Shown here: in pieces, positions 611-34,331 of the stretch | Layout: every line of letters starts with the position of its first letter | Numbering within the stretch: the stretch's first letter is position 1 | Source of the DNA: Patescibacteria group bacterium | GTDB taxonomy: Bacteria > Patescibacteriota > Microgenomatia > UBA10105 > UBA927 | Reading direction: 5' to 3' | NCBI GenBank assembly: GCA_018821245.1 | Contig: JAHJMO010000002.1 | Coordinates: 9,231-73,230, forward strand | Length of the DNA: 64,000 nucleotides | Position numbers and translations under genes: made by a program | Notes under the pieces: generated by a model | Seen by the model: the letters and a program-made list of their open reading frames with translations, nothing else | The model's database searches: none | What the model was told of the DNA's origin: nothing

Positions 611-616
611 ACTGAT

Positions 617-2041
617 TTAACCAACGCTTCCCTCTATATAGAGCTGGATGAGTCGGTTCATTTCTACAGCGTACTCAAGAGGAAGCTCTTTGACGACTGG
701 CTCTATAAATCCGTTGACGATCATCGACTGGGCCTGGGCGCCGGAAATTCCGCGGCTTTTGAGATAAAAGAGCTGTTCCTCACCGATTTTGGAAACTGTC
801 GCCTCGTGCTCCACCCCGGCGTCATGTGCTTCTATACGCATAATGGGATACGTATCCGAACGGGACGAACGATCCATGATAAGCGCGTCACAAACAACAT
901 GACTTTTGGCGGCCGTTGCTCCCCTGGGAATTGCTACCAATCCACGATATGATGTTCTGCCTCCATTCCTGCTGACTGACTTGGAAATAATATGCGATGT
1001 CGTCTCCGGGGCTAAATGCACGGCTTTGGCGCCGGCATCCTGATGCTGACCCCGCCCTGCGTAAGCAAGGGAGAGTATGTCTCCCCGCGCCTTGCGGCCG
1101 ACGAGATAGACACTCGGGTACTTCATGGTAAACCGGCTTCCTAAATTGGCATCTACCCACTCCATGACGCCCTCTTCCTCCACGCGCGCCCGTTTGGTCA
1201 CGAGGTTATAGACGTTGGTACTCCAATTTTGAATCGTAGAGTACCGGACTCTCGCACCTTTTTTGACAATAATCTCCACCACTGCAGAATGAAGCGAACT
1301 TGTGGAATACATAGGGGCAGAACAGCCTTCAACGTAATGCACGAAGCTTCCCTCCTCTGCAATAATGAGCGTCCTTTCAAACTGCCCCATGCGCTCGCTG
1401 TTAATGCGGAAATAGGCCTGAAGCGGGAGTTCTATGCTCACACGAGGGGGAACATACACAAATGAGCCCCCTGACCATACGCTTGTATTGAGCGCGGCAA
1501 ATTTGTTGTCAGAAGGCGATACAACGGTGCCAAAATATTGCCTGATAATATCCGGATATTCTTTAAGCCCAGAGTCCATATCCAAAAAAATCACACCTTT
1601 TTTGGCAAGCATGGACTGAATACTTTTATATACTACCTCCGATTCATATTGAACGCTGACCCCCGACAGGAATTTTTTCTCTGCTTGGGGAATACCAATT
1701 TTGTCATACGTGTCTCTGATCTCATCCGGCAATTGAGACCAGGAATCCGCCTTATGATCGATCGGCTTGACGTAATAATAGATATCGTCAAAGCTCGCGT
1801 CGCCAAGCTCTAAAGCCCAGGGGGGCAGTGCGCGTTTACGGTATATTGCCAGACTTTGCAGGCGAAGATGCCGCATCCAGTCCGGCTCATTTTTGTGGCC
1901 GCTGATTTGCTTAACCACCTCTTCATCAAGCCCTTTTTTGGCTTTGAACACATATTTCTCCGGTTTGCGAAAACCGAGTGTATAATTATCAAATAATGCT
2001 TTTTTCATTATTAATATATTTACCGTATCCTTCTTTTTCAA
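617..2041 (-). CDS. sufB: Fe-S cluster assembly protein SufB
   Basis: 474 aa with SufB-family conservation throughout (…SRSDTYPIMRIEAHDAGVEHEATVSKIGEEQLFYLKSRGI…), adjacent to the sufC ATPase. Confidence 0.9.
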   Translation of the reverse strand: MKKKDTVNILIMKKALFDNYTLGFRKPEKYVFKAKKGLDEEVVKQISGHKNEPDWMRHLRLQSLAIYRKRALPPWALELGDASFDDIYYYVKPIDHKADSWSQLPDEIRDTYDKIGIPQAEKKFLSGVSVQYESEVVYKSIQSMLAKKGVIFLDMDSGLKEYPDIIRQYFGTVVSPSDNKFAALNTSVWSGGSFVYVPPRVSIELPLQAYFRINSERMGQFERTLIIAEEGSFVHYVEGCSAPMYSTSSLHSAVVEIIVKKGARVRYSTIQNWSTNVYNLVTKRARVEEEGVMEWVDANLGSRFTMKYPSVYLVGRKARGDILSLAYAGRGQHQDAGAKAVHLAPETTSHIISKSVSRNGGRTSYRGLVAIPRGATAAKSHVVCDALIMDRSSRSDTYPIMRIEAHDAGVEHEATVSKIGEEQLFYLKSRGISGAQAQSMIVNGFIEPVVKELPLEYAVEMNRLIQLYIEGSVG

Positions 2042-3704: not shown

Positions 3705-5396
3705 CTAACCGGAAAGCATGGCCACAATCTCATTTTTAATGCTCTCCCGGCCCTCCCTATCCGTGGGTACAAACTGTAGAAGCATTTCCATTTTGCCCGT
3801 CAACTTCTTATACATACCCGGTCCATACGCGCTATCTATGAGGCCTTCCCATTGCTCTTCTTTTTGGGAAATGTACACGGCTCTCATCTCATGCATGGAT
3901 ACACGCTTCAGGATCTCCATGAGCACCAGGACTTCCTCGTCATACGCATACGAAAGCGGTGCCGAACCGGAAAACTGGCCAAGGTATGTGTGTGCAAAAA
4001 AATCCGTCATTGCTTCGTTATACACGTCCGGCAGAGTCGCATCTTTCTGATAAGAGTAATAATGCAGTAACTCGTGAACCGCAATGGTCAAATAGTGCAA
4101 CAGCTTCTTCTGATCGCCGGAGTATTCCATGATAATGCCGTCGGGCGGGTGGAAAACGCCTTCTTCATAAACCGGTGTTCTGGGGTTCTTCCTGAAATCT
4201 TCGTAGGCTTTCTGCCAGGATCCTAAAACCTCCTGATAACGGGACAAGGAAAGGCGGGTTTGATTGACATACTCCTGTATTTCAGTATTTGCCTGATCGT
4301 ATTTGGAAAGTTCACCCTCCCAACGCGAGCGTTCATCCGTACAATACTGATCGTCTTCTCCTTTTACACGCCGGCAGGAGTCATACCACCGGGAAAGACG
4401 CGACGCAGAGGAAGCTTTGCTTTCGTCGTTGGAACGGACGGCTTCTTCGTTTGTAATAATATTGTTCTGAAGGTCCGAAACAGCTTTTTTGGCCTTCGCT
4501 ATCCCGGCAAGTAAACGGTCTCCCTGTTCTTTTTCCTGATCAGTGCGTATCTTAAGATAGTCTTCCGGCAAAGCTACAGCGATGGAATAGTCCGACCCCT
4601 TGACGCTCACAACGTCAGGCAAGCCCCTTGCAACGACGTGGTACGCAAGGATGGGAACAACGCGCGAAACCATGTCAAATGAAACACGCTGGACGGCAAG
4701 AATATAATCCGAAGGAATGTAGACTATGTCAAACGGTAGCGCATCCTGCCACTTCTGTAGTTCCATGGAAGACTTGTCTATGATATCCCGCAATATATAA
4801 GCTTCATAAAACGTCTTCTTCTCAAAATTATCCAACGAAAACCGCGCGTACATGAGATCTTTGGCAAAATCGTCGGAAGCGTCTATGATCCTGGGTACCT
4901 CACTCTCCACCGACAACACATCTTCCACCTGGCTAACACCGATTATCATTCCATCTTCGGGTGAAGGATAACTAAAGCGCTCTTGTTCTGCGCGCATTGA
5001 TTGCCGCGCTTTACTCCTAAGGGCTTGCGTCACGCCAACATCTGCGATCACTATGACGAGAAAAATAGCCGGCGTAAATAACAGGAGACAAGCACTCCAC
5101 CGCAGGCGGCGCCGCGCCCGCATATACAACGATAGTGCAATCGAACAGATAACTCCGGCAATAATGCCAAAGATAACTGCGTAAGCGAGTGGCGCTATCG
5201 GGTGAGCTCCCAGTATTTCGCCGGGCAGACGTAAAAAAAGAGAGATGCGCTGGGGCTGGGCTATATACGAACGCGCCGTTGTGGCATAAGAATATTCTAT
5301 GCTCGGAAGAGCTACGGAAATAAATGCAAACAGGATCCCAAAAAGGATAGTACACCACCGAAAAATACGGTCGGCATGTCCAGTGTTTTGCTTCAT
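3705..5396 (-). CDS. membrane-anchored protein with central coiled coil and C-terminal HExxH (zincin-like) motif
   Basis: N-terminal TM helices, a long charged and coiled region, and C-terminal ...IAVHELLHYY...NEAMTDF (HExxH...E). The longer ORF to 5450 would overlap the divergent gene, so the internal ATG at 5394-5396 (MKQNTG...) is the preferred start. Confidence 0.5.
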   Translation of the reverse strand: MKQNTGHADRIFRWCTILFGILFAFISVALPSIEYSYATTARSYIAQPQRISLFLRLPGEILGAHPIAPLAYAVIFGIIAGVICSIALSLYMRARRRLRWSACLLLFTPAIFLVIVIADVGVTQALRSKARQSMRAEQERFSYPSPEDGMIIGVSQVEDVLSVESEVPRIIDASDDFAKDLMYARFSLDNFEKKTFYEAYILRDIIDKSSMELQKWQDALPFDIVYIPSDYILAVQRVSFDMVSRVVPILAYHVVARGLPDVVSVKGSDYSIAVALPEDYLKIRTDQEKEQGDRLLAGIAKAKKAVSDLQNNIITNEEAVRSNDESKASSASRLSRWYDSCRRVKGEDDQYCTDERSRWEGELSKYDQANTEIQEYVNQTRLSLSRYQEVLGSWQKAYEDFRKNPRTPVYEEGVFHPPDGIIMEYSGDQKKLLHYLTIAVHELLHYYSYQKDATLPDVYNEAMTDFFAHTYLGQFSGSAPLSYAYDEEVLVLMEILKRVSMHEMRAVYISQKEEQWEGLIDSAYGPGMYKKLTGKMEMLLQFVPTDREGRESIKNEIVAMLSG

Positions 5397-5434
5397 CTTC
5401 TCCAGTGTAACGCAAAACGTAGTACAATCACACC

Positions 5435-6310
5435 ATGGAAAGCGTCCCAATACTTTATCCCGATACCTGGACCGAGTATGAACTTATAGACACAGGCGAC
5501 GGAGAAAAGCTTGAACGGTTTAATACTGTTCTCACTATCCGTCCGGATCCGAGAATAATCTGGAAAAAAAGCGAGCCTGCTACCTGGAAAGACGCTCATG
5601 CACTTTACCGGCGACACGATGAAACCAAAGGATCATGGGAAAAAGAAGAGAATCTTCCTACCCCATGGCTCATCCATTACCGCAATCTCACCATGGTATT
5701 ACGTCCTTCTGCGTTTAAACACGTCGGAATTTTCCCTGAACAGGCGGTCAATTGGGACTGGTGTACGAAACAAACAGACAACAAACCACTCCGCATCCTT
5801 AACCTCTTTGCCTATACCGGAGGAGCCACCCTCGCGGCAGCTGCGGCGGGCGCTCATGTCACACACGTGGATAGTGTCAAAAGCACGATCGCGTGGGCCC
5901 GCGAAAATGCAAAACTTTCCGGCCTGGACACAAAACCTGTGCGATGGATAGAGGATGACGCCTATGCCTTTGTTCTGCGGGAGGGACGAAGAAAAGCTAT
6001 GTATGATGCACTCATCATGGATCCGCCGCGCTTCGGACGCGGACCAAAAGGACAGGTATGGAAGCTGGAAAACGATCTGCCAAAGATGCTTGCCGCATGC
6101 ACTAGTATTCTTTCCCCAAATCCTGCTTTTATTCTCATCAACGCGTACACTGCGGACCTTTCCTCTATCGCGCTGGGAGAGTTACTTGCCGATTTCACAG
6201 GCCGTTTCGACGGCCGCGTAGACGCGGGTGAACTGGCGCTTCGACAGTCGCGCGTGGAGAGGCTTCTCCCGAGCGGCATCTTTGCCAGATGGACGGGAAT
6301 TAGTTATTAG
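5435..6310 (+). CDS. class I SAM-dependent RNA methyltransferase (RlmI/RlmK-like)
   Basis: LNLFAYTGGATLAAAAAGA (SAM-binding motif I) and DPPRFGRG (motif IV). The domain order resembles the RlmI C-terminal catalytic module. Confidence 0.6.
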   Translation: MESVPILYPDTWTEYELIDTGDGEKLERFNTVLTIRPDPRIIWKKSEPATWKDAHALYRRHDETKGSWEKEENLPTPWLIHYRNLTMVLRPSAFKHVGIFPEQAVNWDWCTKQTDNKPLRILNLFAYTGGATLAAAAAGAHVTHVDSVKSTIAWARENAKLSGLDTKPVRWIEDDAYAFVLREGRRKAMYDALIMDPPRFGRGPKGQVWKLENDLPKMLAACTSILSPNPAFILINAYTADLSSIALGELLADFTGRFDGRVDAGELALRQSRVERLLPSGIFARWTGISY

Positions 6311-6345
6311 TTATTAGTTGTTGGTTATTAGTTGCTTGGTTATTG
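6301..6345. repeat. TTAGTTA/TTGGTTA-type tandem repeat at a convergent gene junction
   Basis: tagttattagttattagttgttggttattagttgcttggttattg. Its first 10 nt encode the last codons and the TAG stop of the upstream + gene. Confidence 0.7.
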
Positions 6346-6348
6346 CAA

Positions 6349-6717
6349 TTATTGTTTTGGTTTGGTTTGCCTCACGCGAATTTTATCCAGAGAATATTTG
6401 ATTGCGCTGTCCAGATTAATCTTCTTGATCCGGGCAAAACGGATGATTGCGACCAAAATGTCCCCCAACTCCTGCTCGTATTGCTCGTCTTTTTGGGCGG
6501 AAATGTTGGTGGGCTTGCGTCCGTGCTTAGCAAGGTATGCCCTCGCCATCTCGCCTACTTCCTCGACAATTGTCAGAATAAGCATGGAACCCCATTCCTG
6601 CGTACTACGGACTTTTTTGTCGATCTGGTCCAATTCATGAAAATACGCGCCAAACGGGGTTTTGAGAAATTTTTGGCCTTTGGGCTGATTTACTAGTTTA
6701 GACGGCGATTGGTCCAT
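6349..6717 (-). CDS. MazG-like nucleotide pyrophosphohydrolase
   Basis: C-terminal ~120 aa carry the MazG fold motifs (EEVGEMARAY ... EQELGDILVAI). The N-terminal extension of the 197-aa ORF (to 6942) is low-complexity and probably spurious. Confidence 0.55.
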   Translation of the reverse strand: MDQSPSKLVNQPKGQKFLKTPFGAYFHELDQIDKKVRSTQEWGSMLILTIVEEVGEMARAYLAKHGRKPTNISAQKDEQYEQELGDILVAIIRFARIKKINLDSAIKYSLDKIRVRQTKPKQ

Positions 6718-6975
6718 AAGATGATTATACCGCAACTTGCGGATGTCTGTTTGAAATTGCATTTGTAGCGGTATTGTGGTGTGATAAATATAGATCGGGG
6801 GTGAGGAAGTATGTGCATGGAAAAAAGCTGTAAAAAAATGAAAAAATATTTCAGCAAATATCCCATGTTTAACGGCGCCATCCATGTGATCGGCGGCATA
6901 GGGATAGGGACACTCATAACGTACCCGTTCGTAGGGCAGCACCCGGTGCGTTAGGGAGTAACGCTGGTTATTTTG

Positions 6976-7221
6976 TCAGCGCTTGGCCACCTGTGGGCAG
7001 CGACCAAATAAACTGCGAAGTTCGATTTTGGCCTTATTGAGGATTGTTTTGCGTGACGGCGGTAAATTTTTACCGGCGCGGTTTATATAGAAATTCAGCA
7101 TGCTCATGGCGGATTGAAAAGGAGAGGCTTTTCTCCGCAGTGAGTTATCAGCGGAATTTTTGAGAGAAGCAGCAATTTTCTTCGGATCATCCCAAGTAAA
7201 TACCCCATCCTCCAGATCCAA
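6976..7221 (-). CDS. DUF3175 family protein
   Basis: 81 aa; ...DDPKKIAASLKNSADNS.RRKASPFQSAMSMLNFYINRAGKNLPPSRKTILNKAKIELRSLFGR matches the conserved DUF3175 core as recalled. Confidence 0.55.
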   Translation of the reverse strand: MDLEDGVFTWDDPKKIAASLKNSADNSLRRKASPFQSAMSMLNFYINRAGKNLPPSRKTILNKAKIELRSLFGRCPQVAKR

Positions 7222-7310
7222 GGCAACACTGTGCTTCGTGACATAGTCAGACCAGTTTTTTGATATAAGTGGTTAGAGTATAGCTTAAATCTCAAAATTG
7301 GTGTTATGAT

Positions 7311-7808
7311 GTGGCTATGTTAACGCTGATTCTTCCGGGATATTCGCCGGCAAACAGGCAATGGGCTCTAAAAGTAAAAGAAAATTTGAAATTGCCCGGT
7401 GAAGTCATCGTGCATGAGTGGCAACATTGGAGAGACGGAAAGAGTTTCAATCTTAAATACGAAGTAGATCAAATACTGGCAATCATCGGCAAACAGCAAG
7501 TGAATTTTATCGCCAAATCAGTCGGAACGAGAGTGCTCATGGCGCTTTTGCCGAAAATCAATAAGCAGGTGCAAAAAGTAATCCTCTGCGGCATACCGAT
7601 CGATCCGTTAAGGTATGTAAAAGGTATTAAATTGATTGGCAGAGATCATCTGCTCGTTGTCCAAAATTCGCAAGATCCCCTGATGCCGTATAAATTAATT
7701 GAAACGTACATCCATTTAATCGATAAAAAAATAAAAGCGGTTGAAAAGGAAGCCAAAAACCACGACTACCCATATTTTGACGATTTCCAAAGATTCTTGA
7801 CTATCTGA
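7311..7808 (+). CDS. small alpha/beta-hydrolase-fold esterase (putative)
   Basis: Nucleophile elbow AKSVG with Asp (NSQDP) and His (NHDYP) downstream in S-D-H order; ~165 aa; AT-rich codon usage. Confidence 0.4.
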   Translation: MAMLTLILPGYSPANRQWALKVKENLKLPGEVIVHEWQHWRDGKSFNLKYEVDQILAIIGKQQVNFIAKSVGTRVLMALLPKINKQVQKVILCGIPIDPLRYVKGIKLIGRDHLLVVQNSQDPLMPYKLIETYIHLIDKKIKAVEKEAKNHDYPYFDDFQRFLTI

Positions 7809-7825
7809 ATATTCAACTCCTTCTG

Positions 7826-7866
7826 CTACAAAATTTTCACGCCATGGCATGACTTTTTTGTAGTAA
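7826..7866. repeat. palindromic hairpin element copy 1 (ctacaaaaTTTTCACGCCATGGCatgacttttttgtag)
   Basis: Inverted repeat ctacaaaa...ttttgtag around a conserved core TTCACGCCATGGC. A second copy lies at 8617-8660, and the two flank the PaaX-like gene. Confidence 0.7.
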
Positions 7867-7888
7867 CTATTCAGGACAACAATCTCAA

Positions 7889-8593
7889 TTAGGCTATACC
7901 AAAATAATCCCGATAAGGCGAATCATCTTCTAGAGTCGTTGCGACAATATACAATACCTCGTTGCCTACACCATAATATTCTTTCAGAAAAGTCACCTGT
8001 TTTTCACAAGGATATGGATATAACCAAACGCTTTCCTGCAGCTTACAAAATCCTAAGGCTCGCAACGCTTCGCGAAAAACATCGCGCAACCGTTTTTTTC
8101 TGTTTTCCACATCGTAGACAATCAGCCTCCAACGACCGTCCCATTGTCTAGGCTTTTCGATAGATAATTCATCGAGAGCATATTTTAAAATTCTGCGCTT
8201 ACCCGCTTCTGAGAGAACTACTACTTCCTCACCGTTTTGCCCCTTAATTTCAACATATTTTTGCTTATGAAATCGTTTAATCGCTGAACGTAAATACGAA
8301 GGATTATATTGCTTCCAAACTTCATATTTCTTTCGTCGTTCTTCGTCCAAAAAAGGCTTTGCCAATATTGCGGCGGATGGCGAAATAAACGACAATCCTA
8401 CTACACCAGCTAAACCGAGAAACGCAAGAATATGCTTAACTGGAGCGTAGCGGCGATGAATTTCTTCCTGATGAATCTGTTTTGCCAGAATCGTTGATAG
8501 CTCTGCAATTCTTTCATCAGAAGGAACTGTAAGCTGTGTATCTAATCGTAGTCGTTTCTTTTGCTTGATTGTTCTTATTGATACCATAAACAA
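7889..8593 (-). CDS. PaaX-family-like transcriptional regulator homolog with N-terminal TM segment
   Basis: ...VVVLSEAGKRRILKYALDELSIEKPRQWDGRWRLIVYDVENRKKRLRDVFREALRALGFCKLQESVWLYP aligns to the E. coli PaaX segment YSLSDKGLRLTRRAESKIYRAEQPAWDGKWLLLLSEGLDKS...GFGAL.PSLM. The region after the WDG motif also looks Cas2/VapD-like (YDV..R.K..R......G....Q.SV), an observation made from the sequence here. Confidence 0.5.
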   Translation of the reverse strand: MFMVSIRTIKQKKRLRLDTQLTVPSDERIAELSTILAKQIHQEEIHRRYAPVKHILAFLGLAGVVGLSFISPSAAILAKPFLDEERRKKYEVWKQYNPSYLRSAIKRFHKQKYVEIKGQNGEEVVVLSEAGKRRILKYALDELSIEKPRQWDGRWRLIVYDVENRKKRLRDVFREALRALGFCKLQESVWLYPYPCEKQVTFLKEYYGVGNEVLYIVATTLEDDSPYRDYFGIA

Positions 8594-8616
8594 ATTTATC
8601 TTTTAATTCACTTTCT

Positions 8617-8660
8617 TCATACTACAAAATATTCACGCCATGGCTTGGGTATTTTGTAGT
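8617..8660. repeat. palindromic hairpin element copy 2 (tactacaaaataTTCACGCCATGGCttgggtattttgtagta)
   Basis: Same core and inverted-repeat arms as copy 1. Confidence 0.7.
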
Positions 8661-8831
8661 ATACCCTATTTATTAAGCTGGTGACAAGTGACGGCAAGCG
8701 AATAAATGATGACAATAATAATCAAGTAAGTGAGACGAAAGAAAATTTGAGGTATAATATGATCTTAAGTAAGGTTACTTAATAAGTATAGGCAGTTTCT
8801 GATTTCGACTGTCATAAATTGGGATCTTGGC

Positions 8832-8904
8832 TGGGAGATCGTCCAATGGTAGGACAACAGACTCTGGATCTGTTTATCTAGGTTCGAATCCTAGTCTCCC
8901 AGCC
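8832..8904 (+). tRNA. tRNA-Gln (anticodon CTG)
   Basis: Hand-folded cloverleaf: acceptor UGGGAGA/UCUCCCA (U1-A72 and G73, typical of bacterial tRNA-Gln), D-arm GTCC-AATGGTA-GGAC, anticodon arm ACAGA-CTCTGGA-TCTGT (anticodon CUG), T-arm CTAGG-TTCGAAT-CCTAG. CCA is not encoded. Confidence 0.8.
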
Positions 8905-8931
8905 TAGATCCTAACGTGGGATGTACGCATA

Positions 8932-9291
8932 ATGTCCAAGAGGACACTTGTTGCGGAGAATGGCGTTTTAACGTTCTATGGAAAAACTAAATTTTCTTGG
9001 GGAGAATTACTTATTATTGGAGTGACAAAAAAATTCAGTATTGGCGTTGATACGATAGTTCCTCATAAGGAAACCGACAAAGAAGGTACGTATTTAAAAA
9101 AAGGTCGTGTGATGTATTTTGTAATCAAAGGAAGAGGACTATGTGGAGACAAACCAATTAAAAGTGGCGATATCCTGCAGATTAAAGAGGGGCAAAAGAT
9201 AAACATACAAAATAATTCTTCAAAAAAATTAATAATCATAACAATCTATATGCCTCCGTATAACGAAGATAATATTGGATATGAAACATAG
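8932..9291 (+). CDS. hypothetical small protein, possible cupin-like beta-barrel
   Basis: 119 aa, AT-rich, with a weak cupin-like G-x5-PHKE...E...G pattern. First gene downstream of tRNA-Gln in the low-GC island. Confidence 0.3.
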   Translation: MSKRTLVAENGVLTFYGKTKFSWGELLIIGVTKKFSIGVDTIVPHKETDKEGTYLKKGRVMYFVIKGRGLCGDKPIKSGDILQIKEGQKINIQNNSSKKLIIITIYMPPYNEDNIGYET

Positions 9292-9439
9292 CGCAAGACA
9301 GGCAACAAGAATTTACCATACACAACTGTATACTGATAAGAAATTATTTCGGAAAGGCGCGTCGTGGTTAGATAAGCCAGAAAAATAAATTCTTTCAGTT
9401 ATTAAGAATAATTTTCTTGGCAAAAAGAACATTAAAGTT

Positions 9440-9982
9440 TTGGATTTGGGTTCTGGGGTGGGAAGAAACGCAATTCCTATAGCTCAAATGATTGGGAAAT
9501 CAGGTGGAGAAATTATTTGCGTGGATTATCTTGATGTCGCAATTGATAAACTACATGAATATATAGAACTATACAATGTAAGTAAATATATAACAGGCAT
9601 TTTTTCTTCACTTGAAGATTTTGTTATAAACCCAGATGATTACGATTTCATCATCGCCCATAGTGTTTTAACTCACATGGAGAATAAAGAGAAAATGATT
9701 CAAACAATGAAAGATATGGCAAAGGTCACAAAGAAAAACGGTTTTGTGTATATGTATGTAATTACTAATCACAGAGAATTTGATAGAAAGACAGGAAAAG
9801 AACAGAAACTTGAAGATGAGGTAGAGATTGGCTTTGACGAAGCATGTTCATTTCTCAAGAATATTTATAGTGGATGGACAATACTGGCATTAAAGAAACA
9901 TCCGTATGAGGAAACGTTTAACAGACGAGGCAAAGAAATACGTTGGAATGTTGACTATTTGTTATTTATAGCAAAAAAATAA
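9440..9982 (+). CDS. class I SAM-dependent methyltransferase (N-terminally short or truncated)
   Basis: Starts at motif I (LDLGSGVGRN) with an acidic residue after beta2 (VDYLD). A TTG start and an in-frame stop at 9386 leave at most 17 aa upstream of motif I. Confidence 0.6.
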   Translation: MDLGSGVGRNAIPIAQMIGKSGGEIICVDYLDVAIDKLHEYIELYNVSKYITGIFSSLEDFVINPDDYDFIIAHSVLTHMENKEKMIQTMKDMAKVTKKNGFVYMYVITNHREFDRKTGKEQKLEDEVEIGFDEACSFLKNIYSGWTILALKKHPYEETFNRRGKEIRWNVDYLLFIAKK

Positions 9983-9993
9983 CAATAATAATC

Positions 9994-10014
9994 TCTAGAC
10001 CGGCCAGCTCAGCT
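9994..10014. repeat. post-stop inter-cassette motif copy 1 (tcTAGACCGGCCAGCTCAGCT)
   Basis: Shares the consensus AGACCGGCCNGCTCAGMTCAGG with copies after three other consecutive genes. Confidence 0.7.
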
Positions 10015-10018
10015 AAAT

Positions 10019-10516
10019 ATGTCAACAGAAATTCATCAAGATATAAACAAAGCAATACTTATTGTGCGTGATGCAGGGAGATGGCTAAAAGAGAGTGGAA
10101 AAAATCCTTCTAAATGGTGGTTATTAAAAAACCTCAATAAAAAATTTCTTTTAAAGTATGCAAAACCTGAAGAATTTTATGTAGCTTTAGTTGATAACAA
10201 ACCTGCAGCTGCAGCCGTACTTCAGTTTAGTCAAAAAGCTCAAGATTGGAAAAGTATTGATAAAGATAAACTCAAATCCGTTCTTTATATCCATTGGCTT
10301 TGTGTTCACAGAAAATTTGCAGGAAAAGGTTTTCCGAAAATAATGGTTGATTTTGCAGAAAAGTTAGCCAAAGAAAAAAACGTTAAACTTTTACGAGCCG
10401 ACACTAACGCAAAAGAGATGAAATTGAGAAAAATCTACGAGGATTTAGGGTTTAATTTTGTCGGCGTTGAGCAAGAAAATTATCGCCATACAGCCTTTTT
10501 TCAAAAAAAGATATAA
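10019..10516 (+). CDS. GNAT family N-acetyltransferase
   Basis: ...LYIHWLCVHRKFAGKGFPKIMVDFAEKLAKEKNVKLLRADTNAKE....IYEDLGF. GNAT motif A (R/Q-x-x-G-x-G/A) and the overall topology are present. Confidence 0.7.
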   Translation: MSTEIHQDINKAILIVRDAGRWLKESGKNPSKWWLLKNLNKKFLLKYAKPEEFYVALVDNKPAAAAVLQFSQKAQDWKSIDKDKLKSVLYIHWLCVHRKFAGKGFPKIMVDFAEKLAKEKNVKLLRADTNAKEMKLRKIYEDLGFNFVGVEQENYRHTAFFQKKI

Positions 10517-10521
10517 TTGCC

Positions 10522-10545
10522 CTGGATCGGTCAGCTCAGATCCTG
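10522..10545. repeat. post-stop inter-cassette motif copy 2 (ctGGATCGGTCAGCTCAGATCCtg)
   Basis: Same motif family; it has internal dyad GGATC...GATCC. Confidence 0.65.
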
Positions 10546-10601
10546 AAAAAAGACATCTTAGCTCTCAGCCAAAGGTAGATTTCAACAGCTTTGGAGGAAC
10601 C

Positions 10602-10639
10602 CATCCGTATGTGTCTAGCTAGCACACACCGGGTGTGTG
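10602..10639. repeat. 38-bp dispersed element copy 1 containing the perfect inverted repeat CACACACC-G-GGTGTGTG
   Basis: catccgtatgtgtctagctagcacacaccgggtgtgtg is identical to 11900-11937. It also contains the CTAGCTAG palindrome. Confidence 0.8.
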
Positions 10640-10650
10640 AATTATATATT

Positions 10651-11274
10651 ATGTTCAAAAATAAATTATTTTTGATTATTGAAACCGGTTATTTGTTTAT
10701 TTTCCCTTTGATTTTGCTGCGCTTTTATCCAACCTTCATTCACTACCGCATTTATGTATTGATGGGCAGTCTCATTTATATTTTTATTGTGGTTTATTCT
10801 CAGAAAATTACCAGTAAAAATCTCGGGCTTAATCCGAGCAGATTCTTTCCGGCAACCAAAGCGCTTTTTATACCTACTGTGCTTAGTATGTTACTGACTT
10901 TTGTTTTCTTTCAACTCGCAAGAAAGTGGTTAATAATTCCTGTGCTTGTTGAAGAAATTCGAACTCCTTCTATAGCCGTTTCTGTTTTAACTTATATTTT
11001 TGTTTCGGCTCCACTGCAAGAATTTGTGTATCGCGGCTACTTAGTTTCCAGACTGGAAATCGTTTCTCGTAATGCAACTTTTATAAAACTTTATAGCGCA
11101 ATAATCTTCATGGTAATTCACACGCCGTTTTACAATTGGTTTTTACCATTGGGTTCGCTAATTTTAGGCTTGCTCTGGACTGGTAATTTCCTTACATATA
11201 GAAACGTTTATGCCTTAATGCTGAGCCATACTCTAATCGGAGCCACGTATATTATTCTGATGGGTATGAGTTAA
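10651..11274 (+). CDS. CPBP family intramembrane metalloprotease (CAAX protease/Abi-like)
   Basis: Polytopic membrane protein with CPBP motifs QEFVYRG (motif 1), FMVIHTPF (FxxxH, motif 2) and SHTLIG (motif 3). The ATG at 10651 is preferred over the TTG at 10591. Confidence 0.65.
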   Translation: MFKNKLFLIIETGYLFIFPLILLRFYPTFIHYRIYVLMGSLIYIFIVVYSQKITSKNLGLNPSRFFPATKALFIPTVLSMLLTFVFFQLARKWLIIPVLVEEIRTPSIAVSVLTYIFVSAPLQEFVYRGYLVSRLEIVSRNATFIKLYSAIIFMVIHTPFYNWFLPLGSLILGLLWTGNFLTYRNVYALMLSHTLIGATYIILMGMS

Positions 11275-11283
11275 AAAAGGTCC

Positions 11284-11309
11284 CAGACCGGCCCGCTCAG
11301 CTCAGGCCC
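11284..11309. repeat. post-stop inter-cassette motif copy 3 (cAGACCGGCCCGCTCAGCTCAGGCCC)
   Basis: Same motif family, followed by a hairpin ctgacgggcag...ctgcccgtc. Confidence 0.7.
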
Positions 11310-11403
11310 TGACGGGCAGGGGTCTTTGGTATCCTGGTTCACTGCCCGTCGGCTTTACCGAAGGCAATGCAGGTAGGGAATCCAGGCTGGGCAGCAAATA
11401 ATT

Positions 11404-11817
11404 ATGAATACACAAAAAATAACAGCTAAGTTAAAATCATTTTATCCTGGCAGGAAAGTTATAGTTACTGATCCCCTGAATCCGACTGAAATTATTTGTG
11501 AAGTCGAACTAACAGAAGAACATCCGAAGTGGAGTGTTGCTGTTGCGGTCATCGATTCTACTCGTTTACATTACCATAAGCGGTTAACAGAGATATATCA
11601 TATTATGAGTGGTAAATTGAACATGTATCTTAATGGCCAACTGCACCAGCTACAACAAGGCGATATTATAAAAATTCCTCCAAACACACGTCACTATTCC
11701 ATTGGTAATGAAACTATCGTGTATGTCTATGCAACACCTGGTTGGGCGCCTGAGGATCATGTCTTGGTGATTGATAAAAAGGAAATATCCAGAAAGAAAT
11801 ACGACAAGAGGTTCTAG
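11404..11817 (+). CDS. cupin domain protein
   Basis: HYHKRLTEIYHIMSG ... GD.IKIPPNTRHY fits the two-motif cupin pattern; 137 aa. Confidence 0.6.
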   Translation: MNTQKITAKLKSFYPGRKVIVTDPLNPTEIICEVELTEEHPKWSVAVAVIDSTRLHYHKRLTEIYHIMSGKLNMYLNGQLHQLQQGDIIKIPPNTRHYSIGNETIVYVYATPGWAPEDHVLVIDKKEISRKKYDKRF

Positions 11818-11840
11818 ACCGGCCTGCTCAGATCAGGACC
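11813..11840. repeat. post-stop inter-cassette motif copy 4 (tcTAGACCGGCCTGCTCAGATCAGGACC)
   Basis: Here the TAG inside the motif is the stop codon of the cupin gene. Confidence 0.7.
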
Positions 11841-11899
11841 CAGGAAGAATTTTCCGGTTCACGGCCAAAGGCTGATTCTCGACAGTTGTGAAGAGCTTT

Positions 11900-11937
11900 C
11901 ATCCGTATGTGTCTAGCTAGCACACACCGGGTGTGTG
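11900..11937. repeat. 38-bp dispersed element copy 2 (inverted repeat CACACACC-G-GGTGTGTG)
   Basis: Identical over 38 bp to copy 1. Lies about 215 bp upstream of the hydrolase gene. Confidence 0.8.
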
Positions 11938-12153
11938 CAAACAAATTCTCTGCAGTATGAAGCGCAAAGGAGAACCGGTACAGAAGAGAGCGGAACTGAA
12001 GATGGGTAATCCCGATGACGGATAGGAATAGGTCTGGATGTTTGGTAAGATAGTCTAGGTTCATAGGGCAGGACACCTCCTGCCTCTAGTGTAGTATCAA
12101 AAGCTATTTCACTACAACTCTATTTACATACACTTTACTGGGATAGTTTATAC

Positions 12154-12879
12154 ATGAAACAGATTGAATTTTTGGTCAATAATCGAATACTTAAAGGAAC
12201 GCTCTTCTCCTCTCACAACATCAAAGCAAAAAATCCCGCAATTCTCTTTATTCATGGATGGACGAGTGAAAGAGCAAGAAGTTATCAATATGCAAATGCA
12301 CTTACAAAACTTGGCTACATTTCTTTTTTGTTTGATATGAGGGGGCACGGCGAAAGCGAGGGCGATATAAATAGCTATACACCGAAAGAATTCTTTGCTG
12401 ATGTTCTAGCGGCTTATGATTATTTAGCCAAGGTTGAAAATGTAGATAAGGAGAATATCAGTGTTGTGGGCAGCAGCTTTGGATCATATCTCGCAGCGCT
12501 CCTAACCACTAAAAGGAATGTTAAGCGTTTAGCTCTCAGGGTTCCAGCTGATTACCCAAACGAGAATTTTAATAAATCTAAAATACAATCCAGTGGAAGC
12601 AGTAATCCCAAACTGGTATTATGGCGTAAACAAATAAAGAAATCACCGGAAACATTTGCGCTTGAGGCGATTGCTAGTTTTGACGGAGAAATTCTGATAA
12701 TTGAATCGGGGAAAGACAACTCTGTTCCTCACCAAACAATCCAAAATTACATAAACGCAATAAATGACAAAAATAAATTAACTCATATCGTAATGAAAAA
12801 CGCACCGCACAGCATAAAAGAAGGTCCGTTCAGAGACGAGGTAGAAAAAATTTTGGTAGATTGGTTTAAAAAAGGATAG
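12154..12879 (+). CDS. alpha/beta hydrolase (dienelactone hydrolase / esterase-like)
   Basis: HGW oxyanion region, nucleophile elbow VGSSFGS, later Asp/His (ESGKDNSVPH), ~240 aa. Confidence 0.65.
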   Translation: MKQIEFLVNNRILKGTLFSSHNIKAKNPAILFIHGWTSERARSYQYANALTKLGYISFLFDMRGHGESEGDINSYTPKEFFADVLAAYDYLAKVENVDKENISVVGSSFGSYLAALLTTKRNVKRLALRVPADYPNENFNKSKIQSSGSSNPKLVLWRKQIKKSPETFALEAIASFDGEILIIESGKDNSVPHQTIQNYINAINDKNKLTHIVMKNAPHSIKEGPFRDEVEKILVDWFKKG

Positions 12880-12881
12880 CT

Positions 12882-12900
12882 GCACACGCCGGGTGTGTGC
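12882..12900. repeat. degenerate third copy of the inverted repeat (GCACACGCC-G-GGTGTGTGC)
   Basis: One mismatch relative to a perfect dyad. Located between the convergent hydrolase and 12912..13358 genes. Confidence 0.6.
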
Positions 12901-12911
12901 GTTGCATCGCA

Positions 12912-13358
12912 TTAATGGAAGTACTTCTTGATCTTCTCCAGATCTCCGTTGATAAAAATCGGCAGGAGGCCGTAGATTTCTTCTTTGTGAACTAATTCTT
13001 CTGAAATGGGCCGATAGATAAAAATCGGTTTTTTGAGAAAAAAAGCTAAACCCATTTCCATGAGAGTATTTCCTCCGATATATCCTTTCATCCCTTTTTT
13101 CTCCAGATTTACAACCAAAATTGCATCCGCTTGAGTAATCTTGCGGAAATGACCGCGAATGAGGTCTGCCTTTTTGGAATAATCTCCGGGATTACTCCAC
13201 CAGGTTTTGTAGTGAGACACCTGATAATCTCCTTTCTTGCGCATTATGTCTGCGGTTTGGGGAAGCAAAACTTTGAACCCTAACTTGCGCAATCGGTCTC
13301 CAATCTCGACAACCTCCTTAAAATGTACCGCGCTGGAACAAACGGCGATAGATTTCAT
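12912..13358 (-). CDS. nucleoside 2-deoxyribosyltransferase-like / flavodoxin-fold protein (putative)
   Basis: IAVCSS...GDRLRKLGFKVLLP...ADAILVVNLEKKGMKGYIGGNTLMEMGLAFFLKKPIFIY resembles PF05014-type proteins. Confidence 0.35.
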   Translation of the reverse strand: MKSIAVCSSAVHFKEVVEIGDRLRKLGFKVLLPQTADIMRKKGDYQVSHYKTWWSNPGDYSKKADLIRGHFRKITQADAILVVNLEKKGMKGYIGGNTLMEMGLAFFLKKPIFIYRPISEELVHKEEIYGLLPIFINGDLEKIKKYFH

Positions 13359-13388
13359 GGTATAACTATTTCATGGGGAGTCCAATCA

Positions 13389-13796
13389 TTAGAGGCTGTT
13401 AAGATCGGCATTTATATCTTTAAAATCCGCTTCGTCTGTCGTAAGTTGTGTGCCTTCGAGGTCCTTGGTGATATCAACAGTTGTATCCGTTTGCGTCAGA
13501 GTCGGTGTGGGCTGGACCGGTATCCCGCCAGTCCCGAAGCCTTCGTTTGGCTGGGAAACTTCTGTACGGATCTCGGGAGTGGTGCCCTCTGGGAGTTCCG
13601 TAGACGGCCGTTTCAGCATGAAAAAATAATACGCACCTGCACCAGCCAGGAGGACAACAATCAAAAATACGATCACCCAAAGCAACCCTGATGAATGTTT
13701 GACCCGGGGAGGAGGAACAACCATATCAGAAGCTTGCTGATCTTGCGATGCAACGGGTTGTTCTATTGGCGGTTGTTGGACAAGTTGATCTGCCAT
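13389..13796 (-). CDS. hypothetical single-pass membrane protein
   Basis: Central TM helix LLWVIVFLIVVLLAGAGAYYFF with a Pro/Gln-rich N-terminus; GC-rich codon usage like the host genome. Confidence 0.4.
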   Translation of the reverse strand: MADQLVQQPPIEQPVASQDQQASDMVVPPPRVKHSSGLLWVIVFLIVVLLAGAGAYYFFMLKRPSTELPEGTTPEIRTEVSQPNEGFGTGGIPVQPTPTLTQTDTTVDITKDLEGTQLTTDEADFKDINADLNSL

Positions 13797-13798
13797 AA

Positions 13799-14566
13799 TT
13801 ATTGCGACGCGGCAGCCGAGGCTGCTGACGTTACCGTAGAAACTTCATCTATTCCCTGTATGGATTTGAGCTGCCCAAACACCTTTTGGACTGCCGTCTG
13901 TGCCGTTTTAAGGCTTGCCCTCACAGCACCCAGATCTTCCTGAAGCTTCTTGACGGTCGCACCAACTTCTGTCTTTGCTGTCGTATCATCTGTTACCACA
14001 AGTTGATATCCTTTTGCTTTCTGCGCATCGACCATAGCCTGCGAGGAGGCTATTGCAATTCGAGCTTCTGTAATCGCTGTCTCTATGGAGGAAACATTTT
14101 TCCCCGCGGCTTTTGCTTTCTCGGTACGGGACTCTATTTTATCCAGAACGGTAGAAAGCCGCTCGAGAAATTTAGTAAAATGCTCCGTCCTGGCGGTATT
14201 GATCGCCGAAAGTCTCTCTTGAATCCGCACGGCAATCTGTTTCTTTTTCCCGTCCTTCATATCCTTAATCCTGGCCTGGATGGCGACCTTTTTCTCCGCA
14301 GCTTTATTTTGCATCTCCTGTTTCTTTACCTCCCTTACTTCTTTCAATTCCTGCCAGCGCTGTTTTACTTCTGCTTTTGTCTCTTCTCGATTCTGAAGAG
14401 CAGCTTCTTTGGTTGCCTGAATACTATTCCTGACCGCCTCGTCCGCTTGCGATCCAACTTTCTGGTTGCCCATGGCGTTAGGCGCCGAGAAAACGACCGG
14501 GGCAAAAACCAACAATGCTGAAACAAAAACTACGCCGATAATAACTTTTCTTATCATTAAAACCAT
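13799..14566 (-). CDS. secreted coiled-coil protein (hypothetical)
   Basis: Signal-peptide-like start MIRKVIIGVVFVSALLVFAPVVFSAPNA followed by Lys/Glu/Ala-rich coiled coil. Start candidates are at 14566 and 14557. Confidence 0.45.
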   Translation of the reverse strand: MVLMIRKVIIGVVFVSALLVFAPVVFSAPNAMGNQKVGSQADEAVRNSIQATKEAALQNREETKAEVKQRWQELKEVREVKKQEMQNKAAEKKVAIQARIKDMKDGKKKQIAVRIQERLSAINTARTEHFTKFLERLSTVLDKIESRTEKAKAAGKNVSSIETAITEARIAIASSQAMVDAQKAKGYQLVVTDDTTAKTEVGATVKKLQEDLGAVRASLKTAQTAVQKVFGQLKSIQGIDEVSTVTSAASAAASQ

Positions 14567-14626: not shown

Positions 14627-15502
14627 ATGCAGGACATACAAAAAAAAGCGGGTGTTGCGGCGCTTATCGGCCGTCCGAATACAGGAAAATCAACGCTTCT
14701 TAATAACATCCTGAAACAGAAGGTGTCCATCACATCCCCCAAGCCGCAGACTACGCGGTTCTCGATACGTGCCGTCTATGAAGAAGAGCGCGGACAGATC
14801 GTATTTGTCGACACACCGGGAATTTTTGCAAAAGCAGTAGATCCGCTCGCCCGGCACATCAACCGACAAGCACATAACGCACTCTCTCAAGATTTAGACG
14901 TACTTCTTTACGTCATCGATCACACGCGTCGGCGCGACTTTGAAGAAAATAAGACCCTTGGACACGTACGGAAAATCAGCTCCCCGAAAATACTCGTCAT
15001 CAATAAAATCGATGTACGGAGCCCAAGCTACATCGTCGAATATAAATTCATGGAAGAAGAATTCGACCATGTCGTAGAAATTTCCGCTCTCACCGGAAAA
15101 AATATCCCCACGCTTCTGGATACAATATTTTCGTTCCTGCCCAAACAGGCACCAATCGTAGACACTTCTACCATGACCCAACCGGCGCTTAATCTCGACA
15201 GTAAAACATTTATCGCAGAGATTATCCGCGAAAAAGCGTTTCTTTTCCTTCGCAGAGAAGTCCCATATCGTTTAACGACTACGATTGATAAGCTCATCGA
15301 ACGCGATAATGGCACGCTTTATATCAAAGCACGGATCCTGACCAACGACGACCGTTATAAAGCAATGATCGTGGGGAAGAAAGGCGCGATGATAAAGGAA
15401 ATCAGCATGGCCGCACGCAAGGAACTGGAAACAGCAACCAACAAAAAGGTTTATCTGGAGCTAACCGTTGAGACTGATCCGCACTGGATAGAATACCTAT
15501 AA
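14627..15502 (+). CDS. era: GTPase Era
   Basis: G1 GRPNTGKST, G3 DTPG, G4 NKID and a C-terminal KH domain; 291 aa. Confidence 0.88.
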   Translation: MQDIQKKAGVAALIGRPNTGKSTLLNNILKQKVSITSPKPQTTRFSIRAVYEEERGQIVFVDTPGIFAKAVDPLARHINRQAHNALSQDLDVLLYVIDHTRRRDFEENKTLGHVRKISSPKILVINKIDVRSPSYIVEYKFMEEEFDHVVEISALTGKNIPTLLDTIFSFLPKQAPIVDTSTMTQPALNLDSKTFIAEIIREKAFLFLRREVPYRLTTTIDKLIERDNGTLYIKARILTNDDRYKAMIVGKKGAMIKEISMAARKELETATNKKVYLELTVETDPHWIEYL

Positions 15503-19026: not shown

Positions 19027-20454
19027 TTATGAACCTTTGGAGAATTTGTCTGTTTTTGATTTGCGCTTGCCAACAACGACAATACCCAATTCACGAAGCT
19101 GATAGCCGGATGCGCTACTTGGGGCGTCCATGACGCTTGTGGTTCCTGATGCGGATGCAGGAAACGCCATAACCTCCCTAACGTTCGGCTCACCCAATAT
19201 GGCCATAAGGAGCCGGTCGATACCGGGAGCAATACCGCCGTGCGGCGGCACGCCGTAGGTAAACGCCGTCAACATGTGCTCAAATTGGACTTTTTGCTCA
19301 CCCGTAAATCCAATAAGGTCAAATACTTTCTCCTGAATCTCTGCCTGGTGAATACGGATGCTTCCGCCGCCAACCTCAAAACCGTTTAACACCATATCAT
19401 GCTGAAGCCCCCGCACTTTCGTGGGGTCAGTATCAAGAAACGGAATATCGTCAGGATGCGGGGCGGTAAACATGTGATGGGAAGGGGCAAACTTAGCCCT
19501 TCCTGAACCATGATAGAAGTCCTCCTCGGACTGCTCGGTAAACAACGGGTAATCGATAATCCAGGCAAAGGCAAGTTCGTCCGGATCCTTTTTATCCATT
19601 CGCAGATCGGGTTTGTCCGTCCCGTACTTCTCCCGTGCAACTTTGTGCGTGAGACGCGGCCACGGGCTTGCCGACAGATGCTTATCCGGAAACAACTCTT
19701 GAACCAGCTTCGTAAACAGTTCTTCCGCAAGCCTCAAAATATCTTCCTGAGTGACAAACGACATCTCCACATCTAACTGTGTGAATTCGCCGTAGGCACG
19801 GTCGCGCCGGGGATCTTCATCCCGGAAACAACGGGCAATTTGAAAATACCGCTCAAGCCCTGCAACCATAAGAAGCTGTTTATATTGCTGGGGAGACTGA
19901 GGCAAGGCATAAAACTTACCCTTCTGAAGCCTGGAGGGCACAATAAAATCCCGCGCGCCCTCGGGCGTGGTTTTGGTCAAGATGGGTGTTTCCACCTCAA
20001 CAAAATCGCGCGCAAGTAAATACTCCCTGATAAAGGCAACGGTGCGCGAGCGCATGCGTAAGTTTCTCGTGATCCGGGGACGGCGTATGTCTAAATATCG
20101 GTACTTTGCACGGATTTCTTCCTCTATCTCATAGCCATCAGTGTCTATGGGAAAAGGCAACGGCTGTGCGCGGCTGACAATCGTCAGCTTTTTGACTTCT
20201 ACCTCAATCATTCCTGTGGGTATCTTCGGGTTGACGAGATTCTCCGGCCTCTTTTTGACCAACCCCACTACTTCGACAACCGACTCGGCAGGAGCATCTC
20301 CCAGACCTTTCGTTGCTACCATTTGTACGATACCCGACCGATCACGCAGATCCAAAAACATGATTTTGCCGTGATCGCGGCGGCTTTGAATCCAACCCTG
20401 CAAAATAACCTCTCTGCCGATTTGCTGTATTGTTTCCGAAACTAATGTACGCAT
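19027..20454 (-). CDS. aspS: aspartate--tRNA ligase (class IIb, lacks the GAD insertion; possibly non-discriminating)
   Basis: OB-fold N-terminus, the QSPQ motif (ALPQSPQQYKQLLMV), and class II motifs 2 (FRDED..R) and 3 (GGIAPGIDRLLM); 475 aa. Confidence 0.75.
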   Translation of the reverse strand: MRTLVSETIQQIGREVILQGWIQSRRDHGKIMFLDLRDRSGIVQMVATKGLGDAPAESVVEVVGLVKKRPENLVNPKIPTGMIEVEVKKLTIVSRAQPLPFPIDTDGYEIEEEIRAKYRYLDIRRPRITRNLRMRSRTVAFIREYLLARDFVEVETPILTKTTPEGARDFIVPSRLQKGKFYALPQSPQQYKQLLMVAGLERYFQIARCFRDEDPRRDRAYGEFTQLDVEMSFVTQEDILRLAEELFTKLVQELFPDKHLSASPWPRLTHKVAREKYGTDKPDLRMDKKDPDELAFAWIIDYPLFTEQSEEDFYHGSGRAKFAPSHHMFTAPHPDDIPFLDTDPTKVRGLQHDMVLNGFEVGGGSIRIHQAEIQEKVFDLIGFTGEQKVQFEHMLTAFTYGVPPHGGIAPGIDRLLMAILGEPNVREVMAFPASASGTTSVMDAPSSASGYQLRELGIVVVGKRKSKTDKFSKGS

Positions 20455-34330: not shown

Positions 34331-34331
34331 A

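Follow-up and report, generated by a model that had tools for sequence, protein, structure and literature searches.

We analysed a 64-kb window, meaning here the whole stretch of DNA under study, on a contig from a metagenome-assembled genome (MAG) of Candidatus Gottesmanbacteria, a group within the Patescibacteria or candidate phyla radiation (CPR). The window carries a ribosomal-protein operon, recA, secDF and several aminoacyl-tRNA synthetase genes and therefore represents chromosomal core DNA. Between the suf/PIG-L genes and era lies an islet of low G+C content (GC), ~5 kb long (~7810-12900), which holds a tRNA-Gln gene and seven genes for accessory proteins and is the subject of this report. 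The closest relatives of the host are other Gottesmanbacteria MAGs, with Era identities of at most 76%. Four other assemblies (a second NCBI MAG and assemblies from ENA, JGI and Logan) are colinear with the window at 99.86-99.98% identity.

The gene content proposed in an initial annotation of the window (hydrolases, a PaaX-like regulator, cupins, a methyltransferase, a GNAT and a CPBP protein) was borne out by a Pfam scan. At the left, a minus-strand gene encodes a PaaX_M/Cas2-like domain protein (7889-8587; PF20803, E=2e-21), flanked by two copies of a 40-nt palindrome: a downstream copy at 7826-7865 (repeat family D5/I1, 88% identical to 8622-8661) and an upstream copy at 8620-8661. The plus-strand tRNA-Gln(CTG) follows at 8832-8904, where the same annotation had placed it and where both ARAGORN and Rfam (66.9 bits) called it. 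Its leader (8819-8838) and trailer (8895-8914) pair over 20 bp and lengthen the acceptor stem (inverted repeat I8), and a promoter-like site lies ahead of it at 8730-8758. The trailer, AGATCCTAACG, is common to the window and two other genomic loci, L012 and L060, which are described below.

Downstream of the tRNA, six plus-strand genes run from 8932 to 12879. A small cupin-like gene, cupinA (8932-9291; weak Cupin_2 match), starts 27 nt after the tRNA and is followed by a class I S-adenosylmethionine-dependent methyltransferase gene (TehB-like, 9281-9982), whose full-length frame contains an in-frame TAA at 9386-9388. Next come genes for a GNAT acetyltransferase (10019-10516), a CPBP/Rce1-like membrane protease (10651-11274; PF02517, E=3e-10), a second cupin, cupinB (11404-11817; Cupin_2 by Pfam), and a 241-aa alpha/beta hydrolase (12154-12879; by Pfam), the last of which is frameshifted in part of the population. 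The minus strand at 11927-12064 carries the remnant of the 5' end of an IS5-like (HTH_Tnp_4/DDE_Tnp_4) transposase gene, recognised through distant-homolog matches. NCBIfam assigned no specific functions to the islet genes, and the PADLOC defence-system models gave only sub-threshold Cas2-like and methyltransferase matches there.

We observed a marked compositional deviation at the locus. The initial annotation had judged 7.2-13.4 kb to be AT-richer than its flanks by eye, and the computed profile is indeed not flat: the GC of 7230-13400 is 38.1%, compared with 46.6% for the rest of the window. The lowest value of any 6171-nt stretch (0.381, starting at 7251; 50-nt steps, mean 0.456, sd 0.023) falls at this position. 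The seven genes between 7889 and 12879 have a G+C content at third codon positions (GC3) of 0.25-0.36, each below all 63 other genes of the window (mean 0.472, sd 0.052; z -2.1 to -4.3 for the islet genes), with 0.322 for the PaaX-like gene (z=-2.9), 0.361 for the CPBP gene, 0.347 for the 241-aa hydrolase gene and the lowest value of all, 0.247, for GNAT. For the six genes downstream of the tRNA, the GC3 difference gives a Mann-Whitney p = 8e-9. The dinucleotide-signature distance peaks at 8-10.5 kb (66, compared with a median of 32), and is nearly as high at 35.5 kb. The low-GC core thus agrees with the annotated island; its limits do not, since the two edge genes are host-typical, and the islet spans ~7810-12900 rather than 7230-13400. 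These edge genes encode a small alpha/beta-hydrolase (7317-7808, plus strand; Abhydrolase_1, E=2e-6; GC3 0.463, z=-0.16), which because of its host-like composition probably lies outside the imported segment, and a nucleoside 2-deoxyribosyltransferase-like protein (12912-13358, minus strand; PF05014, E=7e-5, below the Pfam cutoff; GC3 0.477, z=0.09).

The spaces between the islet genes are occupied by two recurrent sequences. A ~20-nt motif (motif A, consensus TCTAGACCGGCCNGCTCAG), partly dyad-symmetric as read from the sequence, has four copies in the window, where 0.1 are expected, and all four are in the islet. They lie 0-13 nt past the stop codons of four consecutive genes: copy 1 (9995-10015, plus strand) 13 nt after the methyltransferase gene, copy 2 after GNAT, copy 3 (11283-11303) after the CPBP gene and copy 4 overlapping the cupinB stop codon. 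The second sequence, a G+C-rich hairpin (hairpin B, GCACACACCGGGTGTGTGC), has three copies in the window, compared with none expected. Copies 2 to 4 of motif A belong to three plus-strand intergenic elements. Element E2 (10522-10640) consists of motif A, a spacer of ~80 nt and hairpin B (GCACACACCGGGTGTGTG); element E3 (11275-11403) is a G+C-rich spacer with motif A at its 5' end; and element E4 (11814-11938) again combines motif A, a spacer and hairpin B. The last 38 nt of E2 are identical to 11900-11937. The third copy of hairpin B (12882-12900) stands at the right edge of the low-GC segment.

We compared these elements with known structures. An attC-like structure was rejected, as neither strand of E2-E4 folded better as DNA than shuffled sequences did (z -0.9 to -1.4), and the E2-E4 sequences contained no GTTRRRY/RYYYAAC pair, in a search that used no dedicated attC covariance model. 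A tRNA-like or other known non-coding RNA was likewise rejected, with Rfam recovering only the true tRNA at the gathering threshold, at E<=1 and at E<=10. Against the 3' end plus trailer of the L012-type tRNA-Gln, motif A matched at 13/13 nt in E2 and 19/23 nt in E3, the second and third best matches in the window. As a copy of a tRNA trailer, motif A was significant only against this L012 type, with three of the four copies at chance level against the window's own trailer; an origin of motif A from an attachment (att)-like site is therefore a weak lead only.

Our locus comparison covered 20 Gottesmanbacteria loci that carry Era, and further loci fetched through the GNAT, methyltransferase and cupinB genes. 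The order Era-GltX-hyp351-S11 peptidase-AspS-RecJ-CCA-SecF is kept in all 20, in contrast to the DNA upstream of Era, which differs throughout. Only two islet genes, a PaaX-like gene (L012) and a GNAT gene (L045), turned up in these relatives within 10 kb on that side of Era, so that synteny of the whole set, which would have spoken for a native region, is not conserved. In 14 of the 20, an EndoIII-like HhH-GPD gene lies no more than 3 kb upstream of Era, often with GreA and tRNA-Gln nearby; the 64-kb window has no counterpart of the EndoIII-like gene and also lacks GreA. The 1.02-Mb Gottesmanbacteria contig of L045 has both flanks, PIG-L/sufCBD and Era/GltX, with different genes between them, which indicates that the suf-era interval is a long-standing variable zone. 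Conserved core thus stands on the right in 20 loci and on both sides in L045, around contents that differ. Relatives with host-like content upstream of Era show a flat GC there. In total, four of nine genes recur beside tRNA-Gln or in the suf-Era interval, each in single relatives: the PaaX-like gene in L012, cupinA and the methyltransferase gene in L060, and GNAT in L045.

The neighbourhood of tRNA-Gln is rearranged and invaded in several relatives (L003, L004, L012 and L045). In L004, the 3' end of tRNA-Gln(CTG) is separated by 95 nt from an ORF of ~410 aa (5324-6800), judged by eye to encode a large serine recombinase, in the place that GreA occupies in other relatives; no flanking repeats were found around it. 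In L003, a Fic-domain gene is enclosed by two tRNA-Gln(CTG) genes in inverted orientation that belong to different sequence types (819-2126), with GreA directly after the second tRNA. L012 contains one tRNA-Gln inside another (470-700, minus strand): a complete tRNA-Gln(CTG) interrupts the T-arm of an outer tRNA-Gln-like gene. The inner tRNA has a paired leader and trailer resembling the helix in the window; the outer gene has an anticodon arm that is now a perfect hairpin (GTCCCGC-TTA-GCGGGAC) and a 3' trailer that matches that of the window tRNA. Immediately downstream of the nested tRNA, an ORF (1-400, minus strand) shows by eye the hallmarks of an IS200/IS605 TnpA (HLVFCPKYRRRVL...DHVHMMI), with hairpins before it. 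A HigBA pair lies in the tRNA-Gln neighbourhood of L045. The same contig encodes a SufB with a LAGLIDADG_3 domain (12013-14460; an intein-like insertion, from a precomputed Pfam list), which the window SufB (474 aa) lacks.

Two blocks of the islet are shared with genomes of low GC. The first (module 1) runs from the first base of the window tRNA-Gln through cupinA into the methyltransferase gene (8832-9784) and is 77.5% identical over 956 nt to positions 6584-7504 of L060, with weaker identity running on to the end of the methyltransferase gene. The core genes of the two genomes are less similar (70.9% nucleotide identity for Era and 64-69% for the GltX and hyp351 flanks). L060 has a GC of 38.6%, and module 1 there points away from Era, inverted relative to the window. 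The cupinA product is 78% identical to that of the gene after tRNA-Gln in L060, and 60% identical to that of the gene in the same position in L058. The second block (module 2) aligns window positions 11378-11831 with 88-543 of L076, a contig of 37% GC, at 81.6% nucleotide identity. It starts in the 3' end of the L076 tRNA-Gln, takes in the last ~20-22 nt of that tRNA, the spacer and the start codon, and stops in motif A. CupinB itself is 81% identical in protein, and 81.6% in nucleotide sequence, to a gene located 3 nt after tRNA-Gln(TTG) in L076 and L077. Since the alignment reaches into the tRNA, the 3' end of E3 (~11376-11395; GGGAATCCAGGCTGGGCAGC, followed by 8 nt and the ATG) is probably the remnant of a tRNA-Gln that once stood ahead of cupinB; Rfam and the nhmmer tRNA-Gln profile did not detect it on its own. 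The tRNA-Gln genes of the L060 block and of L076, the latter directly ahead of the cupinB homolog, suggest that tRNA-Gln travels with its downstream genes.

Both homology blocks end within motif A, and the motif thus marks module boundaries. An exact copy of motif A stands at the stop codon of the methyltransferase gene in L060 and L061, and a degenerate one follows the cupinB homolog in L076 and L077. A run of 21 nt (GTTCTAGACCGGCCTGCTCAG) is identical between E4 of the window, where it follows cupinB, and the L060 copy, where it follows the methyltransferase gene. In all other loci of the comparison, including the 20 Gottesmanbacteria loci, the motif is absent. Its specific form has no match in IMG/VR, where a loose pattern gave 14 single matches that we judged, by our own estimate, to be at chance level. 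In the JGI metagenomes, the composite of motif A and hairpin B occurs only in the same strain, apart from one chance match in a sequence of 66% GC. Past motif A in L060 lies a fragment of ~200 nt (7711-7910), whose frame ends in ...KKGDEIGIKVEKATKEGTLMYAA* and which is followed by a motif-A-like GGTTCTAGATCCGTTC; it looks like a decayed cassette between two motif copies.

The remaining genes have other connections. GNAT has >100 homologs in Patescibacteria at 50-72% identity (65-72% among those placed), and their neighbours differ every time; no viral relative was found in IMG/VR. A 72% identical GNAT gene lies in L042 (8001-8528), on a contig with archaeal S3Ae, TFIIB, eIF2-gamma and an ATP-dependent ligase, where it is a low-GC outlier (0.375, compared with 0.48 for the contig) and looks like the product of an inter-domain transfer. 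GNAT also matches a contig of 36.7% GC. For the PaaX-like gene, a homolog of 43% identity is found next to tRNA-Gln in L012; its GC3 of 0.507 is host-like there, compared with 0.322 here. That homolog is also bracketed by a pair of 34-40-nt palindromes (~770-803 and ~1535-1570), whose sequences differ between the genomes and which may serve as operators or mark module ends. In L083, a 61% identical methyltransferase homolog sits in a long co-directional run (5400-14300) of small genes for nucleotide housekeeping (NUDIX, MazG, Macro, radical SAM, methyltransferase, GNAT, NUDIX, pyrophosphatase, Ham1 and ASCH), which has neither tRNA-Gln nor motif A. Block transfer from a single donor was rejected, given that the homologs of GNAT, methyltransferase and cupinB lie in unrelated contexts. 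The strongest argument for low-GC donors is compositional. The shared genes (GC3 0.25-0.29) are within the host range in L060 (core 0.25-0.46) and L076 (0.31-0.35), and are outliers in the window, which points to low-GC donors and to genes that have not yet ameliorated.

Several lesions indicate that the islet is decaying. Single-frame translation of the methyltransferase gene gives one 233-codon frame interrupted by the TAA; the reconstructed protein aligns over its full length (100%) with homologs of 234-242 aa, and the stop aligns with an invariant Glu (alignment A1), which implies a GAA>TAA change. The gene is thus a pseudogene or a truncated gene, and the nonsense codon is common to all strain variants. 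In an ORF on the minus strand (11828-12076), residues 5-50 match the N-termini of two proteins from a library of 1.84 billion, P0122 (E=6.5e-5) and P0124 (E=6e-4). Both have HTH_Tnp_4, and P0122 also has DDE_Tnp_4. The similarity stops after ~46 codons, at hairpin B, and the ORF has no direct Pfam match and no identified inverted repeats. This IS5-like sequence is a remnant, not an element. In addition, a 1-bp deletion at 12666 in two of the five assemblies (L050 and L051) results in a hydrolase of 180 aa instead of 241 aa. The annotated absence of any integrase or transposase gene therefore holds for intact genes in the scanned ORFs and not for the truncated remnant at ~11927-12064. The scan used Pfam on the island ORFs, both flanks and all ORFs outside the ribosomal-protein block of the 64 kb; no recombinase was found, and the L004 recombinase had no tblastn match in the window. 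In view of the nonsense codon, the transposase fragment and the frameshift polymorphism, the description of the region as old and decayed is fair.

Variation elsewhere in the window and in the population was also recorded. Spacer E3 differs in the strain variants L049 and L050 by an A>C change and 3 inserted nt (window 11341-11348). Single-nucleotide polymorphisms of the flanks are concentrated in Era (14719-15070) and AspS (19285-19357), a pattern suggestive of recombination tracts in the population. A milder low-GC patch at 33542-35135 contains two ABC-2 permease genes (GC 0.37-0.40, GC3 0.40-0.41). A second patch (61038-62270, GC ~0.38), gene-poor with fragmentary ORFs only, follows fusA, which is without its usual neighbours rpsG and rpsL; one of its ORFs (61900-62190) has a GC of 0.32 and no Pfam match, and the patch may be another decayed accessory region. 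A tRNA-Pro(GGG) called by ARAGORN at 40007-40083 is almost certainly a false positive, since it lies within the recA ORF (38888-40222, minus strand) and has no Rfam call.

We conclude, with a probability of about 0.7, that the islet at ~7810-12900 is a horizontally acquired mosaic of small modules in a hypervariable suf/PIG-L-era interval and that it is now decaying. Horizontal acquisition, as proposed in the initial annotation, is well supported by the foreign composition, by the absence of most of the genes from the locus of the 20 relatives and by the scattered closest relatives. The modules would have been drawn from the gene pool of low-GC Patescibacteria, and GNAT also from an archaeal (DPANN-like) lineage, with no single integrase-borne delivery of the islet. 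At least two modules have the form of a tRNA-Gln, one or two cargo genes and a ~20-nt motif A. Several modules would then have been joined head to tail downstream of one intact tRNA-Gln, by recombination at motif A, at tRNA-Gln copies or at both. The tRNA-Gln promoter probably drives at least the first genes, which would be co-transcribed with the tRNA. The import may have displaced the EndoIII-like gene that is found near era in most of the sampled relatives, and the islet would now be under relaxed selection.

Several points weigh against this conclusion. Module 1 exceeds the core in identity only modestly (77.5% compared with ~70%), and the two genomes differ in GC, which confounds the comparison. 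In view of the four recurring genes, part of the content could have been at the locus for a long time and have disappeared from it in other lineages. We found no close relative that lacks the islet; Era of the nearest other species is only 76% identical, which sets no bracket on when the insertion happened or how large it was. Finally, no recombinase, excision junction or att duplication in the window ties motif A to recombination.

The mosaic reading has a mechanistic refinement, in which motif A is a site-specific recombination site served by a recombinase in trans, and single-gene cassettes, some with a tRNA-Gln copy, were inserted serially at tRNA-Gln as in an integron array or in Xer-dependent dif modules. 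The co-directional small genes with the same motif just past each stop codon fit this proposal, as do the dyad symmetry of the motif, its position behind non-homologous genes in different genomes with 21 identical nt, the homology blocks that end in it, and the L060 gene fragment between two motif-like copies. A further point in its favour is the position, right beside tRNA-Gln, of the by-eye L004 serine recombinase and of the L012 TnpA-like ORF. However, the 64 kb encode no recombinase, the folds (z about -1) and the missing GTTRRRY cores give no sign of attC-like sites, and the motif is confined to three genome lineages: it is absent from the 20 Gottesmanbacteria loci and, in its specific form, from IMG/VR, its composite with hairpin B is limited to the same strain, and most cargo-gene homologs lack it. 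We consider the refinement doubtful, while giving it real weight. Motif A could be a recombination site, a transcript-end signal carried with the genes or a protein-binding site. A broader version, which we regard as unlikely, would extend the process to Gottesmanbacteria and related low-GC Patescibacteria as a hitherto undescribed system of cassette exchange: modules made up of a tRNA-Gln, cargo and a terminal TCTAGACCGGCCNGCTCAG would be captured serially at the chromosomal tRNA-Gln locus by a trans-acting recombinase that joins them at the motif, at the tRNA copy or at both, and redundant internal tRNA copies would then decay. Such a system may amount to an integron-like platform headed by a tRNA instead of intI/attI.

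The other alternatives deny either the foreign origin, the piecemeal assembly or the reality of the islet. That the region is native and vertically inherited, with a low GC caused by relaxed selection, AT-biased mutation or low expression, would accommodate the pseudogenisation, the other small low-GC patches and the presence of several islet genes in the suf-Era interval or beside tRNA-Gln in other Gottesmanbacteria. Yet the methyltransferase frame is conserved apart from one recent nonsense mutation, and decay has thus not gone on long enough to bring GC3 down by 0.2. In hosts of 37-39% GC, the orthologous units have the same GC as here and are native in composition; the PaaX homolog of L012 has a host-like GC3; the regions upstream of Era in relatives are flat in GC; and the GNAT homolog on the archaeal contig is 72% identical. 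As the orthologous units look donor-like in composition and the inactivating lesions are young, a native origin is improbable. We find it highly improbable that a single integrase-mediated insertion into the 3' end of tRNA-Gln, with later loss of the integrase and the att repeat, delivered the islet. The low-GC genes immediately 3' of the tRNA, the L004 recombinase adjoining a tRNA-Gln 3' end and the limited likeness of motif A to the L012-type 3' end and trailer would suit such an event. The window, however, contains no other copy of a tRNA k-mer of >=11 nt, none of the last 28 nt with <=6 mismatches, and no nhmmer hit of a tRNA-Gln profile other than the gene itself; no convincing att duplication of the tRNA 3' end was seen in L003, L004, L005, L012, L045 or L060. 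Low-GC DNA also extends 5' of the tRNA to the PaaX-like gene, the tRNA itself is in the block shared with L060, the nearest relatives differ from gene to gene, and three of the four motif copies resemble the tRNA's own trailer at chance level only. The integrase-at-tRNA model is therefore disfavoured, and with it the annotated role of tRNA-Gln as a classical boundary. Finally, an assembly or binning chimera, in which DNA of a lower-GC organism was wrongly joined into the contig, might be suspected from the MAG source and the sharp compositional change. Assemblies made with different pipelines and samples remain colinear across the left junction (five of them) and the right one (three) at >=99.86% identity. 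The junctions are thus real and not an artefact; a chimera is effectively refuted, and we put its probability close to nil.

The islet, a small decaying patch of housekeeping-type accessory enzymes, has no evident phenotype. Its significance lies in the host: CPR bacteria have tiny genomes with few recognisable mobile elements, and gene exchange among them is accordingly poorly understood. The locus offers a concrete example at the level of sequence, comprising a suf-era hotspot, tRNA-Gln genes that occur in relatives as duplicated, inverted or nested copies, cargo also found in low-GC Patescibacteria and on an archaeal contig, and a short conserved motif precisely at the ends of the homology blocks. 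If motif A is a recombination site, this would represent a new cassette mechanism; if it is not, the locus still shows clearly how an island turns over and decays in a population of CPR bacteria.

We found nothing relevant in the literature on genomic islands or integrons of CPR bacteria, and compared the islet with systems known from other organisms. Flexible ('additive') islands or plasticity zones beside tRNA genes are a concept from work on Prochlorococcus and Alteromonas. They resemble the islet in the fixed interval, the lineage-specific accessory genes, the tRNA neighbour and the traces of mobile elements, whereas here whole species or genera from an uncultured CPR clade, not strains, are compared, and a specific terminal motif is present. 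Xer-dependent dif/pdif modules and the IS200/IS605-derived repeats known as palindrome-associated transposable elements (PATEs) and miniature inverted-repeat transposable elements (MITEs) are analogous as small modules or repeats that have short sites or hairpins at their ends and are moved by enzymes encoded at other loci; in contrast to these, no TnpA is encoded in the window, and motif A and hairpin B occur both together and apart. None of the parts of a complete integron (IntI, attI and Pc) is present in the window. The closer comparison is with clusters of attC sites lacking integron-integrases (CALINs), integron arrays that share with the islet short co-directional unrelated genes (here six plus-strand genes, with motif A after four), little intergenic space, a repeat at which homology ends, and no local integrase. 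The islet differs from CALINs in that its ~20-nt motif has neither the imperfect palindrome of attC nor R''/R' cores and folds like shuffled sequence, and in that a tRNA instead of attI/intI heads the array. With tRNA-associated genomic islands, the islet shares a deviant accessory block 3' of a tRNA that varies among relatives and contains an insertion sequence remnant; it differs in having no integrase, no repeat of the tRNA 3' end, low GC on both sides of the tRNA and the tRNA in a shared block, and in being only ~5 kb long and a mosaic of one- or two-gene units. Deviant composition (z -2.1 to -4.3) together with absence from relatives, apart from single genes in L012, L045 and L060, nonetheless places it among genomic islands. 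In conclusion, the islet is ordinary as a genomic island and unusual in its cassette-like layout.

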